Positions 7,360 through 54,137 of a DNA stretch of 64,000 bases are shown piece after piece. The notes below the pieces were generated by a model that saw only the letters and a program-made list of their open reading frames with translations, searched no databases and was not told the DNA's origin. The DNA is from Eledone cirrhosa (lineage: Eukaryota): the NCBI GenBank assembly GCA_964016885.1, contig OZ024743.1, forward strand, positions 318,680,001-318,744,000, given 5' to 3'. Numbering within the stretch: the first letter of the stretch is position 1; each line of letters starts with the position of its first letter. Both the position numbers and the translations under genes were made by a program.

Positions 7360-7790
7360 TTCTAGTGCTGGTAACACGATAGTATCCACCCAGTACACTC
7401 AATTAAGTGATAGTGCTAGTACCAGTGTAAAATGCTCCTAATATACCCTGTAAAGTGGTAGTGCAGGAGCTATGATAAAGTGTATCCAGTACACTCTGTA
7501 AAGTGACAGTGTTGGTGCCATGATAAAATGTACTCAGTACACTATGTAAAGTGGTCGTGCAGGTGCCACAATAAAATGCATCCAGTACACTCTGTAAATT
7601 GGTAGTGTTGGTGCCATGATAAAATGCACCCAATACACTTTGTAAAGTGGTTGGTGTTGGGAAGGTAGTCCAGCTGTAGAAACCATGCCAAAGTATGAAG
7701 AAGATTTGTTTTATTAACCCAACTAATCTCAAAGTGCAACAACCTGTCCAACCCCTGCCCAGGAAATGGATGATTAACCGATGATGAATA
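7360..7790 (+). repeat. About 42-bp tandem array derived from a SINE/RTE 3' unit, ending in an RTE-type tail
   Basis: About 7 copies of GTGCTGGTGCCATGATAAAATGCACCCAGTACACTCTGTAAAGTGG-like unit. Confidence 0.75.
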
Positions 7791-12389: not shown

Positions 12390-13560
12390 TCATCATCATC
12401 ATCATCATCACCGTTTTACGTCCGTTCTTCCATGCTAGCATGGGTTAGTCAGGTTGTCCTGTTGTGGGCAGTGTCTGGTCGGCTGACCATGCCTTGCTCA
12501 TACAGGAACTGATTCTGGCTTGATTTCTACAGCTGGATGCCCTTCCTAACACCACCCTCATTTACAGTGAGTGCTGGGTGCTTTTTTTCTGTGGCGCCTA
12601 CACGTCCACTTTATAGTGTGGGCTGGGTGCTTTTTTGCCGTGGCACCTCCACGACCACTTTGCAGTTGGAGGGTGTGGGGGCATATTGTCTATATGCTTC
12701 AGCTTGTACCCATGGGAGGGGTACAAGGGATATATATATCATCATCATCATCATCATCGTTTAACGTCCATATTCCACGCTTGCATGGGTTTGGACGGGA
12801 GTTTTCCCACTTGAGGCAAGGGTGGTTGTCTTGCTCGCATAGGACTGTCTGGCGGGTTTTCTACGGCTGGATGCCCTTCCTAACACCAATCACATTTACA
12901 GTGTAGAACTGGGAGGTTTTTACTGTGTTACCTACACGGCCACATTACAGCGTGGACTGTGTGTTTTTTTGTCGTGACACCTACACGACCTCATTTGTTT
13001 CGGGCTGGATGTTGTGACACCAACATAACTTTACATTGAAAGGGGTGGTGTGGATGGGGTGGGGCTAGTGGGACGGGGTAGTGGGACGGGGGTGTATTTT
13101 GTTAGAGGTGCCTACTGACTGTAGTAGGTTTCACTTTGTACTTAGGTAAGGCGGGTCTTCTGTATTACTGTGTAGCGCCAAAGCTCTCGGTCCAGTGACA
13201 TTGTCTTGGAGAGGTGTAAGTGTGTGAGGTCGGAATTTATCAACTCGTTCCAGGTTTTTCTGGGTCTGCTTACTCCGTGGCTACCATCTATTTTTATTGC
13301 CCTGCACTTTTTTATACAGCTGTCGTCTTTCATGCGCATCACGTGACCATACATATATATATATAGGCAACACGGTAAAAACCTCCCAGCCCCACACTGT
13401 AAATGTGGTTGGTGTTAGGAAGGGCATCCAGCTGTAGAAAACCTGCCAGACAGTCCTATGCGAGCAAGACAATCACTCTTGCCTCAAGTGGGAAAACCCC
13501 CGTCCAAACCCATGCAAGCGTGGAACACGGACGTTAAACGATGATGATGATGATGATGAT
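12390..13560. mobile_element. Cluster of three RTE 3' ends (12390-12725 minus, 12738-13350 minus, 13362-13560 plus)
   Basis: YGHVMRMKDDSCIKKCR...RPRKTWNELI; shared 3'UTR and (CAT)n tails. Confidence 0.85.
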
Positions 13561-20061: not shown

Positions 20062-22745
20062 CATCATCATCATCATCATCATCACCGTTTTACGTCCGTT
20101 CTTCCATGCTAGCATGGGTTAGACGGGTTGTCCTGTTGTGGGCAGTGTCCGGTCGGCTAACCTTGTCTTGCTCATATGGGAACTGATTCTGGCTTGATTT
20201 CTACAGCTGGATGCCCTTCCTAACACCAACCTCATTTACAGTGAGTGCTGGGTGCTTTTTTCCCGTGGTGCCTATACATCCACATTACATTGTGGGCTTC
20301 GGGCTTTTTGCCGTGGCACCTACACGACCACTTTGCAGTGGGAGGGGGTGGGGGCATATTGTCTATATGCTTCAGCTTCAGCTTGTACCTGTGGGAAGTC
20401 GGGTCTTCTGTATTAGTGTGTGAAGTCACGGTCATGTGTCATCCCCTTTGAGAGGTGCAATTGGGTAAGGTCGGCTTTTATCACCTCATCCCAGATCTTC
20501 TTGGGTCTCCCCACTCCACGGCTTCCATCGACTTATAGTACTCTGCACCTTTTTATGCATCTGTCATCCTTCATATGCATCACATGTCCATACCAACGCA
20601 ACCTTCTCTTCTACACACAGCAATTGATTCCTCTTATGCTCAGTCTCTCTCTCAATTCATTTATGCTTTCTGTTCACGTATATTACTATTACACACCCAT
20701 CGGAGCATGCAGGCTTCATTTCTTTCTAATCTACGCAAGTCTTCTACAGACAGCGCCCAGGTCTCACTACCATGTAACATTGCTGTTCGTATGCACGCAT
20801 CATACAGTCTGCCTTTCATTTTGAGGGAAAAGTCTTTTGCAACTAGCAGTGGCAGTAGCTCCCTGAACTTCTTCCATCCCGTTATTACCCTAGTTATTGT
20901 ACTTTCTGAACACCCACCTCTGCTGCAAATTCGGTCACCTAGGTAGCAGAAGCTGTCTACTGTTTCTACAGAGCCCTCCCAGAGTTTGGTGGTGCTTGTT
21001 TCCTGTGGCCGTTTGCTGCTTGCTGTCTCAGCGCAGCTGCTACATGTGAAGCCTACATTCTTAGTTCAGCTATCTCTTGTGTACACATTGTTTGCATTTG
21101 GGGCAGAGGATGGAGTTCCTACCTACACCTTTCCTAAATAGAGCAAGGCCATTTCCCTGAGGGGATCTAGGTTCTGTTTTCTCGTCTACTTACAAGGACC
21201 TTAGTCTTTGTCAGGTTGACTTTGAGACCCTTTCTTTCTAGTCCCTGCTTCCATGTTTGGAATTTCTTCTCTAGTTCTACCATAGATTCAGCTATAAGTG
21301 CAAGGTCATCCGCATGCAGGAGTTTCCATGGGCATCCGGTCTTAAACTCCTCCGTTATTGCCTGCAAAACTATGATGAACAGGAGAGGGCTAAGAACAGA
21401 TCCCTGGTGGACACCGACCTGTATGTTTAATTCCTTGCTATAGTCATTGTTAATCCTAACTTTGCTGACTGCTCCTCTATACATGGCTTGTACAGCTTTC
21501 ACAAGCCATTCATCTACATTCATCTACCTTCTAAGAGCCCACCAGATTATAGCACGGGGGACTCTGTCAAAGGCTTTCTCCAGATTGACGAAGCCAGGTA
21601 GAGCGGCTTACTTTTAGCTCAGTACTTTTTCTGTAACTGCCTCACAAGGAAGAGGGCATCAGTGGTGCCTTTTCCTAGCACAAACCCAAATTGCATCTCA
21701 TCTAGTTTCACCTGGTCCCTAATCAACTGTGCTATAACTCTTTCTGTTACTTTCATGACCTGGTCCATCAGCTTTATAACTCTATAGTTTCTTCTATCTA
21801 GTGCATCACCTTTACCCTTGTAGCAGTTGACAATGATGCTGCTGCACCAATCCTTTGGTATGAGACCTTCTAGTATTACCTGGTTAACAATGCATGTGGT
21901 TATGGCGTGACCTACCGACTCAGATACCTTCAGCATCTCGGCAGCTATACTCGATGGACCGGTTGCCTTTCCCGTCTTCATATCTTTCATTACCTTACTT
22001 ACTACGCTGCTGCTGACCCCTCTAAAGGGTTTATTTGGGGTAGGGGCTCTTTTTCTTATGCATTCTCCTCATTTAGTAATCTATCATAATGGCTCTTCCA
22101 CGCATCTTTCTTCTCAGCACTTGTGAGGGCAAGCTCACCTTTATCATTCCGGATACACTTCTCTCCAATGACATCACAATTCTCTCTGACACACTGCCTC
22201 ATCTACCTTATTGTTCCACTACCAAGTCACTCTCCTCCTGTCTGTGGTCTTGCTCCAACCACAAATCTCGTTCGTTGCTTTTAGTAAGTTATTTTTTAGG
22301 AACTCCCTGTGCTTTTCTACATTGAATGTCTCTATCTGTTCTTCTTTACTGTCATAGACGTCAAGTAAGATATCTTTAAACCTGTTACTGGCTGAGGGGT
22401 CTTCCAGATCTTTCTTCTCCAGGTTGCCTTCTGTTTCCAAGTAACTCTAGTTCTGACAATGAGGTCATTGACAACTAAGTTATGTTGGGAGGTACATTCC
22501 TCACTAAGGAAGGCTTTTGTGTTTACGACCATCCATCTATCTCTGATAAGGATAAAATCTATCTGACTAGAATGCTCCCCTGATCTATAGGTGATCAGAT
22601 GGTTGTCGGGTTTTTTAAAGTTTGTGTTACATATCGACATGTCATTGGAGTCACAGAATTCTAGAAGCCTGAAGCCTTTTTCATTTATTGTGCCAAACCC
22701 GTGGCCTTCATGGACTCTATAGAAGCCGTCATGGTGTTTACCTAT
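20062..22745 (-). mobile_element. RTE LINE, about 2.7 kb, decayed ORF (end of APE endonuclease, RT, PHD-like finger, C-terminus, 3'UTR)
   Basis: SQIDFILIR; YKGKGDALDRRNYR; QFGFV..KGTTDALF; GVHQGSVLSPLLF; HADD in place of YADD; stops and frameshifts; (ATG)n tail. Confidence 0.95.
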
Positions 22746-32294: not shown

Positions 32295-32700
32295 ACAGCC
32301 AGTACACTCTGTAAAGTGGTAGCATTGGTGCCATGATAAAACGTACCCAGTACACTCTGAAAATTGATAGTGCTGGTGCCACAATGAAATAAACCCAATA
32401 CATTTTGTAAAGTGGTAGTACTGATGCTACAATAAAATAAACCCAGTACACTCTGTAAAGTAATGCTGGTGCCACAGTAAAATGCATCTAGTACACTCTG
32501 TAAAATAGTAGTGCTGGTGCCAAGATAAAATGCACCCAGTATACTCTGCATATAAGTTGGCATTAAGAAGGGCATTCAGCCGTATACATTATGCCAAAAA
32601 ATTGGATTGTATGAGCTAGACATAGTTATTTGACCTTGTCCTGTCTCAGATCATGACAACCTGTTTAACATAAATCAGCATGGAAATGGATGTAAAAATG
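32295..32700 (+). repeat. About 42-bp tandem array with RTE-type tail
   Basis: Same unit as 7360-7790. Confidence 0.75.
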
Positions 32701-43372: not shown

Positions 43373-43810
43373 TCATCATCACCGTTTTATGTCCGTTCTT
43401 CCACGCTAGCATGGGTTAGACAGGTTGTCCTGTTATGGGCAGTGTCCGGTCGGCTGACCTTGTCTTGCTCATACGGGAACTGATTCTGGCTTGATTTCTA
43501 CAGCTGGATGCCCTTCCTAACACCAACCTCATTTACAGTGAGTGCTGGGTTGTTTTTTTTCCTGTGGCGCCTACACGTCCACTTTACAGTGTGGGCTGGG
43601 TGCTTTTTTGCCATGGCACCTCCACGACCACTTTGCAGTGGAATGATAGGGACCCCAGTCCTATAATATCATTTCTACAGCTGAGTAAACTGGAGCAATG
43701 TGAAATAAAGTGTCTTGCTCAAGGAAAAAACACATCACCCGGTCCGAGGATTGAACTCACAACCTTTCGATTGCAAGCCCAATGCTCTAACCACTAAGCC
43801 ATGTGCCTTC
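43373..43810 (-). mobile_element. Chimeric element: SINE A head joined to RTE subfamily A tail
   Basis: 43630-43810 matches the SINE head; 43373-43630 matches the tail at 1440-1700. Confidence 0.75.
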
Positions 43811-44308: not shown

Positions 44309-45739
44309 TCATCATCATCATCATCATCACCGTTTTACGTCCGTTCTTCCACACTAGCATGGGTTAGACGGGTTGTCCTGTTGTGGGCAGTGTCTGGTCG
44401 GCTGACCATGCCTTGCTCATATAAGAACTGATTTGGCTTGATTTCTACAGCTGGATGACCTTCCTAACACCAACCTCATTTACAGTGAGTGCTGGGTGCT
44501 TTTTCGTGGCCGCTACACGTCCACTTTACAGTGTGGGCTGGGTGCTTTTTTGCCGTGGCACCTCCACGACCACCTTGCAGAGGGAGGGTGTGGGGGCATA
44601 TTGTCTATATGCTTCAGCTTGTACCCATGGGAGGTCGGGTACTCTGTATTACTGCGTGACGCCAGAGGTCACGGTCGTGTGTCATCACCTTTGAGAGGTG
44701 TAATTGGGTAAGGTCGGCTTTTATCACCTCATCCCAGGTCATCTTGGGTCTCCCCACTCCGCGGTTTCCATCGACTTCTAGTGCTCTGCACCTTTTTATG
44801 CAGCTGTCATCCTTCACACGCATCACATGTCCATACCAACGCAACCGCCTCTCCTGCACACAGCATTTAATTCCTCTTATGCTCAGTCTCTCTCTCAATT
44901 CATTTATGCTTTGTCATTCGCATATATTACTATTACACATCCATCGGAGCATGCTGGCTTCGTTTCTTTCTAATCTATGTAAGTCTTCCACCTTCAGCGC
45001 CCAGGTCTCACTACCATGTAACATTGCTGTTCGGATACACGCATCATACAGTCTGCATTTCATTTTGAGGGAGAAGCCTTTTGCAGCTAGCAGTGTTAGT
45101 AGTTCCCTGAACTTCTTCCATCCCGTTCTTACCCTAGTTATTGTATTTTCTGAACACCCACCTCCGCTGCTATTGAGCACAGCATCTCTCCACTTCTCAC
45201 GGTCCTTCGTCATCTCCACCGTGAGCTTCAGTGATCTGAGGTCTGTTCTCACCACCTCCACCCATGTTTTTCGTGGTCTACCTCTACCACGTCTTCCTTC
45301 AACTGGCATTTCCTGGCACTCCCTCATGCATCGGTCATCCTCCATGCGCATCACATGTCCATACCACCACCGTCTCCTCTCTCACACACTTCATTCTATC
45401 CCTCTCAGACAGTTTCTCTCTCAACACATTCATGCTGGGTCGTTCACGCACATTGACCCTGCACATCCAACGGAGCATGCTTGCCTCATTTCTCTCCAGC
45501 CATTGCATATCCTCTGCAGTTGCTGCCCATGTCTCACTACCATGCAGCATCGCGCTCCTGACACAGGCATCATATAACCGGCCTTTCGTACACAGGGAGA
45601 AACCCTTCTTCGTCAGCAGATCCATCAGTTTTATACCCCTATAATTGCTCCTCTCCAGAGCATCCCCTTTACCTTTGCAGCAATTTATAAGAATACTGCT
45701 GCACCAGTCTTTGGGTATGACACCACCATATATAGCCTG

Positions 45740-45740
<1 letters not shown>
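44309..45740 (-). mobile_element. Mosaic of RTE fragments
   Basis: Subfamily A 3' 860 bp abutting a different RTE C-terminus (GRGRPRKTWVEVVRTD) and an N-terminal RT piece (KGKGDALERSNYRGIKL). Confidence 0.9.
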
Positions 45741-45785
<45 letters not shown>

Positions 45786-46129
45786 CATGCTAGCGTGGAA
45801 GATAGACGTTGAATGACAATGATGATGATGATATATATATATATTAGTGTGTGTGTGTATATATGTGTGCATGTATTTATATTGGGCATCCAGCAGTAGA
45901 AACCAAGCCAGAAACAGTTCTGTATGAGCAAGACATGATCATCTGATCTGACTTGTCTTACAATGGGACAACTCGTCTAACCCATGCTAGTGTAGAAAAA
46001 TGGACACTAAACAGTGATGAGGAAGATGATGATGATATATATATATGTATTCATACATACATGCATATCATCATCATCATCGTTTAACGTCCAAAAAAAT
46101 ATGTTGGTACATGTATGTGGTCATATTTA

Positions 46130-51445: not shown

Positions 51446-51829
51446 TCATTTAATATAATTTAATCCTGGTTATTTTTATTCATATATATATATATATATG
51501 AATATTCCCCACTTATCTTACTGGAGCCGAGTAAGATAAGTGGGGAAAGTGCACTTAAAATGAAGGTGGTCAGATTTTTTTCATTCAACAACTGTATGTA
51601 TTATTTGACAATTCAAATTACATGTACCAAACTAACTATGAAATGTAAAGTTGGGGGTTTGTTTATATATTCTAAGTTTTTGTGTATGAAAACCTGAAGT
51701 GCCCCAAGCTGTAATTCTGGCCCTGAGGGTAGTAGGTGTTTCAAATGTAAAAGCTATATAAATTTTGCCTTCTGTTTTCCATACTCTAGTTTTCTTATTA
51801 AAAAAGTATTAACTGGATTCTTTTTATCA

Positions 51830-52175
51830 TGACACCAGGACAACTATTTTACAGAGAGGACTGAATGCATTTTATAGTAAAATTAGCACTACCACTTTAC
51901 AGAGTGTACTGGGTGCATTTATCATGACACCAGCACACCACTTTACAGAGTACACTAGGTGTATTTTATCATTACATCAGCCCTACCACTTTACAGAGTG
52001 CACCGAGTGCATTTTATCATGACACCAGCACACCACTTTACAGAGTGCACCAGGTGTATTTTATCATGACACCAGCACTACCACTTTATAGAGTGTATTG
52101 AGTACATTTTAACGTGACATAAGCAGTACCACTAAACAGAGTATACTGGGTGCATTTTATCATGGCACTGGCATC
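51830..52175 (-). repeat. About 42-bp tandem array
   Basis: Reverse of the 7360 unit, about 8 copies. Confidence 0.75.
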
Positions 52176-53370: not shown

Positions 53371-53713
53371 CACATACAAATGCACACACACACACATCAT
53401 CATCATCATCATCATCATCACTGTTTAATGTCAATTTTTCCATGCTGGCATGGGTATACATGTGTGTGTGTATATATTCCAGTCATCCTATCTACTGGAC
53501 CACCTATTCAATTTAATCATAGTTAAAATGGTTATAAACATAAATCTTGGATGGAATCAGTTTACCATTGTGTGCAATAAACATGGACCTTGGAAATACA
53601 CATACAGTCCGTCCAACTGGATCTCTTAGAATCTCTGTCTACCGAGTTTCATTCACAAGGCTTAGGTTGACATGATGTGTTGGGATTGAAACTTTAACCT
53701 TTTGCTTGAAAAA

Positions 53714-53788
53714 AGGGCCTAAGTTATTGACCTCCTCATGGTGGGCTCTGGAAATTGATCTGATCTTGATCAGGCAAATAACAACAGC
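53714..53788 (+). ncRNA. HDV-like ribozyme, copy 1
   Basis: P1 AGGGCCT/GGGCTCT, P2 GTTATTG/CAACAGC, P3 ACC/GGT, L3 TCCTCAT, P1.1 CC/GG, P4 TTGATC/GATCAG, J4/2 GCAAA plus 3 extra nt. Confidence 0.7.
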
Positions 53789-53829
53789 CTGAAACAGCAA
53801 CAGTCTCAAATGCAAGAAGATCTAACCAA

Positions 53830-53903
53830 GGGGCCTAAGTTATTGACCTCCTCGTGGTGGGCCCTGGAAACTGATCTCTGATCTCGATCAGGTGAACAAT
53901 AGC
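53830..53903 (+). ncRNA. HDV-like ribozyme, copy 2
   Basis: P1 GGGGCCT/GGGCCCT with G1.U wobble, P2 GTTATTG/CAATAGC, P3 ACC/GGT, L3 TCCTCGT, P1.1 CC/GG, P4 CTGATC/GATCAG, J4/2 GTGAA. Confidence 0.8.
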
Positions 53904-53961
53904 CTGAGACAGCAACAATCCCATATGCAACAAGAAGATGTTTGAAAAACAAGGCTAATTA

Positions 53962-54137
53962 CCGTATTTTCTGGTGCCGAAGACGCTTCGTCCTCGAGGG
54001 CGCACCCTAATTTTGACAACCAAAAATTTGAAAAAAAATAATAAACAACCTTTGGACTCATGGTACCAGGACGTATGGTAGATTTTTTAGACTTATTTTA
54101 GGAAAAAAGTAGCGTCTACGACGCCGGGAAATACAGT
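53962..54137. mobile_element. Tc2/pogo-like MITE
   Basis: Reverse copy of 113-281. Confidence 0.75.

Follow-up and report, generated by a model that had tools for sequence, protein, structure and literature searches.

A short retroposon with a predicted HDV-like ribozyme, built from the two ends of a Vingi-type LINE and probably inserted as a dimer in Eledone cirrhosa

The tandem repeat that starts at position 53714 of the window, as we call the whole 64,000-nucleotide stretch of Eledone cirrhosa DNA analysed here, is best read as a head-to-tail pair of a non-autonomous retroposon of ~110 nt, made from the first ~92 and the last ~17 bases of a 3-kb LINE of Vingi type. The pair was likely inserted as one dimer by means of the LINE proteins. 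Each unit is headed by a predicted HDV-like ribozyme that would free its 5′ end, and both ribozymes have probably been crippled by later CpG decay. We put the probability of this reading at roughly 80%. The window locus itself is a dead fossil.

The two repeat units begin at 53714 and 53830, confirming the period of 116 nt given in the initial annotation, and all parts of the dimer lie on the forward strand. Unit 1 consists of an HDV-like ribozyme fold (53714–53785) followed by a spacer, a hairpin (53790–53808) and an AAG tail, which together occupy 53786–53819. A 10-nt linker, here called linker A (53820–53829), leads into unit 2, whose ribozyme fold (53830–53903) is followed by a decayed hairpin (53905–53923), a LINE-derived 3′ end and an AAG tail (53904–53938). 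The feature was first taken to end at 53903; it reaches 53938, with a hairpin and tail after the ribozyme in each unit. Each unit is a whole retroposon, running from G1 of the ribozyme through a short hairpin to an (AAG)n tail, and in the hairpin of unit 1 the 5′ arm comes from the LINE 5′ UTR and the 3′ arm from the LINE 3′ end. The whole dimer is enclosed by a target-site duplication (TSD), the 11-bp left copy (53703–53713) being identical at 10/11 positions to the right copy (53939–53949); its TSD score is 8, and 13 of 1500 controls score at least 8. Linker A is absent from the flanks of the locus, differs from the TSD and is missing after the last unit, but six further contigs hold head-to-tail arrays that have it. 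In one sample, contigs agree exactly with window positions 53428–53874, spanning the unit junction; the listed joints could be paralogous. Directly downstream of the dimer, and unrelated to it, lies a repeat of ~180 nt (53958–54134) of very high copy number (summed contig depth >100,000), apparently with short inverted ends.

A nested double pseudoknot had been proposed for each unit. A descriptor scan of the whole window on both strands, using what we take to be the characteristic L3 motif, supports this, returning exactly two HDV-like folds, at 53714 and 53830, whereas 20 block-wise dinucleotide shuffles of the window gave three matches in total and never two in one shuffle. Copy 2 is fully paired (P1 7/7 with a G1·U wobble, P2 7/7, P3 3/3, P1.1 2/2 and a P4 of 6 bp) and carries T at the catalytic position, 53893, so that the wobble and the lost catalytic C are both as first described. 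Copy 1 has P1 at 7/7 with an A1–U pair, retains the catalytic C (53775), has G>A in L3 (53738) and forms P2 with one mismatch (6/7 pairs), closing directly after J4/2. These features of copy 1 had been recognised correctly, but its supposed 3-nt insertion had not: most of the family has the long form, and in copy 1 P2 closes directly after J4/2, implying that copy 2 has instead lost one AAC unit. The catalytic C in J4/2 is thus present in copy 1 and in the inferred ancestor and absent from copy 2, and the G1·U wobble and the L3 core with its conserved G are found in copy 2 and in the family majority and are replaced in copy 1. Both A1 and the L3 change would carry a functional cost, the L3 G being important for metal binding. 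The top Rfam model for both units is HDV-F-prausnitzii, with the correct starts, at 20.9 and 19.0 bits against a gathering threshold of 44; neither unit reaches a curated threshold of the Rfam HDV clan, and a wider scan listed no ribozyme. Self-cleavage 5′ of G1 is predicted from the fold, and the 5′ ends of the elements pile up at G1. The C>U change seen at the catalytic position is one that inactivates HDV-like ribozymes, according to the part of PMC10879173 available.

The two copies were thought to have decayed from an ancestral GCGAA by CpG deamination on opposite strands, and the rest of the family agrees. Among 31 aligned copies, which were found by BLAST and therefore not selected on the catalytic motif, the catalytic dinucleotide reads TG in 17, CA in 6, CG in 4 and otherwise in 4; transitions affect 173/421 CpG positions (41%), compared with 138/1383 other C/G positions (10%). 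Outside CpG sites the window units have diverged by 9% and 7%, close to the family median of 8.6%. This median, together with the survival of the full catalytic core in only 2/163 units, shows that the family is old. Alignment of 54 of the 68 eligible units, the more decayed or duplicated array units being left out, shows that the commonest base pair is a standard one at all 31 positions, and at all 25 in the ribozyme. Covariation among the copies, which had been proposed as a check on the fold, did not appear: two-sided change occurs in 12 pairs, against 10.1 on shuffling (128 of 500). Its absence within a family is, however, expected for dead copies of one master, for which covariation is the wrong test.

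The suggestion that the repeat might be a small ribozyme-based mobile element is borne out by dispersed units of ~110 nt with TSDs and 5′ ends at G1. A DNA search of the 3.0-Gb genome gave at least 50 matches from the 40 scored of 375 candidates. The exact core 16-mer matches at 95 sites and its reversed control at none; 62 of these sites have a recognisable short tail, 7 adjoin an inverted LINE piece, 3 are head-only and 23 are decayed or rearranged. Since the core 16-mer is present at 7/32 dispersed tail sites, from which a 31-nt satellite on contig C9 was excluded, there would be about 280–390 short copies; this, like all counts from a census by patterns and BLAST only, is a lower bound. 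Model positions 1–4 mark the start of 99/134 solitary copies with tails, and position 1 is G in 79/100. TSD scores of at least 7 surround 36/100 solitary copies (one of the 100 being a mis-binned array unit), compared with 35/1500 shuffled pairs; a first-pass test gave 16/46 against 2.7%. Rearranged forms were also observed. Two short units lie head-to-head at L006:1408–1605, overlapping at the palindromic start of P1, and upstream of the L028 array lies a comparable short inverted piece. The satellite on C9 (L074, C9:52,349,549–52,351,652) is made of the element's hairpin and tail, with 49 exact motif matches, and L085, L130 and L132 show internal tandem expansions of the ribozyme core.

Where does such a unit come from? 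A 15-nt tail pattern gave 43 matches and, of the 30 that were read, 4 had related, coding-like LINE sequence upstream in place of the ribozyme. The LINE family found in this way (271 candidates, 40 scored) shares its final ~17 nt with the short unit. A check of 50 loci gave three copies (L271, L279 and L281) in which the ribozyme head is colinear with, and just upstream of, an ORF matching the protein P0023. L271 and L281 span about 3.1–3.2 kb and L279 is internally deleted; TSDs were identified by eye at L271 and L279. Alignment of the short unit with the LINE head extends over ~92 nt, after which the unit joins the LINE 3′ end. It therefore shares its 5′ end with the LINE, shares its 3′ end with the ORF deleted, and occurs as dispersed, TSD-flanked insertions, as bipartite non-autonomous LINE derivatives do. 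In L271, residues 21–1010 of P0023 are covered in about 2.86 kb, leaving no room for an RNase H domain. Database relatives have single ORFs of ~1000 aa with APE and RT on contigs of 3.1–3.6 kb, intact there and broken in this genome; the three that were scanned all have APE and RT, and none has an RNase H match. The C-terminal CCHC and thumb motifs of the partner LINE are ones that we take to be of Vingi type. Its architecture of a single ORF with APE and RT and no RNase H would place it in the Vingi clade. The same architecture is given for Vingi in the parts of PMC13708176 and PMC3708506 available, and the former uses the lack of RNase H to separate Vingi from Ingi.

Two sister LINE families, B and C, have heads with unrelated sequences and helices but the same fold, and two of the B and C loci scanned passed the strict descriptor. 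Family B (L293–L302) is Vingi-like, with a (GAT)n tail and an HDV-like head of its own, in which P1 has 6 bp, and its ends are predicted to pair; at about half of 10 family B head loci the head is inverted relative to the 3′ part. Family C, seen at L284:5681–5763 on the reverse strand (C4 near 291.35 Mb), is a younger Vingi-like family with a fully paired HDV-like head. This head scores 61.1 bits on the Rfam model of the mammalian CPEB3 ribozyme (gathering threshold 35, E 1.7e-16), a model matched by neither the window family nor family B, and the L284 copy is flanked by a TSD and contains a frame of 891 aa interrupted by one stop.

The partner LINE also suggests how its two ends came together. 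The stretch directly following P2 is complementary to the one immediately preceding the terminal motif (−20.0 kcal/mol), a pairing matched by 0/286 body windows and 1/1000 shuffles. Family B, with unrelated sequence, shows the same relationship (−23.8; 0/281 body windows, 4/1000 shuffles), but in family C end pairing is unsupported (−10.2, with 119/256 body windows as strong). These comparisons are post hoc, the segments having been chosen after the match was seen, and they set majority segments against a decayed body, which favours the cognate pair. The hairpin of the mini-element is this predicted LINE end helix with the 3-kb loop deleted, and a second subfamily of short elements retains only the base of this helix. 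In the parent LINE, then, the bases just after the ribozyme may pair with the 3′ end, and a deletion across the base of the helix would yield the mini-element. The more general prediction that end pairing yields short derivatives failed, since a colinear short derivative was found at 0/10 family B loci despite their end pairing.

A second feature of the LINE 3′ ends may be related to this helix. An inverted ribozyme head occurs at 8/30 LINE 3′ loci (L207, L209, L211, L213, L222, L226, L229 and L231), 1–325 nt from the matched piece, and the inverted heads end no more than about 20 nt from the helix. They could be products of twin priming in the vicinity of the helix. TSD scores of at least 8, measured in a fixed window, were obtained around 3/9 inverted-head insertions and 1/72 controls. 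Other inversions, with internal breakpoints, are present at L272, L277 and L283.

How did the dimer arise? Twelve head-to-tail multimers were found, with linker A in seven (on seven contigs), a second linker in three, counting once an identical pair on two contigs, and no linker in two. The arrays contain 2–6 units, and monomers dominate. A TSD surrounds the whole multimer in the window, where it was scored, and by eye at L002, L113 and L168. Because the linker differs from the TSD and flank of the window locus and recurs in arrays on seven contigs, the join between the units must predate insertion in the window. Internal array units read TG, CA, TA and CG at the catalytic site, all of which descend from CG, implying that the internal units were intact when copied. 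None of 100 solitary copies has a linker upstream, and the first unit of an array begins at G1; both observations speak for linear templates rather than a circle. We think partial cleavage of a source array the most likely route and rank template jumping or ligation not far below it. A source array of unit plus linker would have been transcribed by read-through from a host promoter; self-cleavage before each G1 would release monomers, and incomplete cleavage multimers; and the LINE endonuclease and RT would then have used the AAG tail for priming and copied as far as a G1. The release of unit RNAs of ~116 nt, proposed at the outset, is plausible for such a source array and unlikely for the decayed window locus. 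A young source array was not found, the exact 38-nt majority head giving 0 matches; a linker pattern search gave 4 matches, all in arrays already known, and a junction query found one other array.

Unless later homogenisation is allowed, the changes shared between units are left unexplained by a linear dimer that came from a source array. The window units have three non-CpG derived changes in common, and at least three are shared by 3.3% of pairs of solitary copies; the five simple dimers share 3, 0, 3, 1 and 3. This would be accounted for either by local turnover, of which L018, L025 and L028 give evidence, or by one monomer having been copied repeatedly.

In the strongest alternative the element is the same, but the RT jumps from G1 of one cleaved monomer to the linker-bearing 3′ end of another, or cleaved monomers are ligated through a 5′-OH and a cyclic phosphate. 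We consider this a real, though lesser, possibility. In vivo template jumps are reported for R2 in the part of PMC3414825 available. All unit boundaries fall at G1 and the internal ribozymes were intact; L168 is a TSD-flanked dimer with no linker at all; and in 3/5 simple dimers the units share three derived changes. The junctions, however, are near-invariant in seven loci, whereas RT template jumps usually add variable bases, and the genomic products of jumping or ligation are indistinguishable from those of partial cleavage.

A retrozyme-like cycle, in which the ribozymes on either side excise a monomer that closes into a circle, and reverse transcription round this circle gives multimers of identical units, we judge unlikely. 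The fixed linker and the locus-specific variants common to neighbouring units would both suit such a cycle, as would the L025 array, which ends past the linker in a partial head, and HDV-type cleavage leaves ligatable ends. Against it stand the solitary copies, 0/100 of which carry an upstream linker, and the first units, which begin at G1 with the TSD directly before them; random stops round a circle predict 1.x-mers. The animal retrozymes described in the parts of PMC7761336 and bioRxiv 10.64898/2026.07.22.740005 available are, moreover, hammerheads tied to Penelope elements.

Still less probable is the insertion of a monomer that was later duplicated in place by slippage or unequal exchange. 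The three non-CpG changes shared by the window units, and the near-identical neighbours in L018, L025 and L028, point that way, but the linker is absent from the flanks, is unlike the TSD, does not follow the last unit and turns up on six further contigs. Local turnover may follow insertion of a multimer but cannot create a linker. Repeated insertion into a preferred target, as in R1 arrays (PMC3414825, as far as available), was also considered and rejected, the window TSD not being the linker.

The initial annotation had also raised the possibility of the repeated 5′ end of an RTE element, which now seems very improbable. An RTE element may have a 5′ ribozyme and a microsatellite tail, and a precedent, Bov-A2, is described in the available text of PMC5786205. 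Each unit here, however, is a complete bipartite element; none of the 95 core sites has a colinear ORF within 700 nt downstream; and the only LINE found with both ends is the family of Vingi architecture. P0023 fails to align (best E 1.4) with a window fragment, itself C-terminal, that we presume from a motif to be RTE-like. The window does contain other LINE remnants, at 21197–21981 and 44614–45976 on the reverse strand, comprising weak RT matches to P0023 at 30–34% and fragments that we presume from a motif to be RTE-like. Pfam found nothing at threshold on the window ORF fragments near 44.6–46.0 kb and 63.5 kb. Tandem units of 48 nt and 49 nt, from other repeat families, occur in the window at 7390–7651, 32299–32548 and 51822–52168; 1603–1708, 12561–12666 and 43532–43640. 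Equally remote is a functional ribozyme pair retained by the host in a CPEB3-like domestication, for although copy 2 keeps every helix and copy 1 the catalytic C, each copy has lost a core residue and their divergence of 9% and 7% equals the family median of 8.6%.

A bipartite LINE derivative headed by a ribozyme is a known kind of element; this case stands out for its multimers with a fixed linker, its predicted end-to-end helix and its inverted heads. The R2 SIDEs (PMC3414825) and NARTc, RIME and the SIDERs of the L1Tc/ingi clade (PMC4035085) likewise join both LINE ends with the ORF deleted, and these systems share with the window family an HDV-like ribozyme at the exact 5′ end (predicted in our case), TSDs and mobilisation in trans (likely in our case); SIDER2 has two ribozyme hallmarks in tandem (PMC4035085; both sources as far as available). 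The D. willistoni R2 SIDE is 529 bp long, whereas the window element is about 110 nt, of which the ribozyme makes up about two thirds. Unlike these systems, the window family multimerises whole units with a fixed linker and is not site-specific. Bov-A2, a dimer of Bov-A, which is an internally deleted Bov-B RTE, is also a dimer of a bipartite LINE derivative, but it is RTE-derived, with no ribozyme mentioned in the text of PMC5786205 available, and the window family is mostly monomeric, with arrays of 2–6 units. Animal non-LTR retrozymes (PMC7761336; bioRxiv 10.64898/2026.07.22.740005) are similarly short ribozyme-bearing units that occur as monomers, dimers and multimers. Those retrozymes are hammerheads with circular RNAs shown and Penelope partners, in the parts of these sources available, whereas the window family has an HDV fold, LINE ends and starts at G1; by definition, the fold excludes it from the retrozymes.

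The partner LINE resembles Vingi elements in its single ~1000-aa ORF with APE and RT, its lack of RNase H, its length of about 3.1 kb and its short derivatives (PMC5786205, PMC13708176, PMC3708506), and the available parts of these three papers contain no description of end-to-end pairing or inverted heads for Vingi. As available, PMC5786205 places Vingi among the makers of bipartite derivatives and not among the ribozyme-bearing clades; PMC6765202, PMC4494074 and PMC5753468, in the parts available, have no Vingi ribozyme; and all eight uses of “ribozyme” in PMC13708176 refer to R2 platforms or HDV. A search of the literature found, in the passages available, no HDV ribozyme reported for Vingi or for octopus.

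These observations allow a wider but speculative proposal, which we think has the odds against it. Vingi RNAs may be closed loops, whose start is fixed by an HDV-like ribozyme at the 5′ end and which are held shut by pairing between the 3′ end and the roughly ten bases that follow the ribozyme. This would bring the head to the insertion site and give rise to inverted heads, to the clean deletion that made a ribozyme-plus-tail element, and to multimers. The mini-element might then have acquired its own cycle from fixed-linker arrays, cut to unit RNAs and rejoined or circularised, which would make it the HDV-ribozyme equivalent of a retrozyme and, among ribozyme-based selfish RNAs of animal genomes, the smallest.

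Finally, the window family provides a natural minimal template for a Vingi-type LINE, consisting of a ribozyme, a single helix that joins the ends and a tail of 17 nt. RNA-only gene insertion is being developed with Vingi-1 proteins, using templates that carry both UTRs (PMC13708176, in the part available). Should the head prove to cleave and the helix to be required, each would become a design rule, and inverted-head insertions would be a predictable by-product. The ribozyme-bearing LINE clades would be extended, by a predicted ribozyme, to Vingi, and the fixed-linker arrays may mark a stage on the way from a LINE end to a tandem RNA that processes itself.
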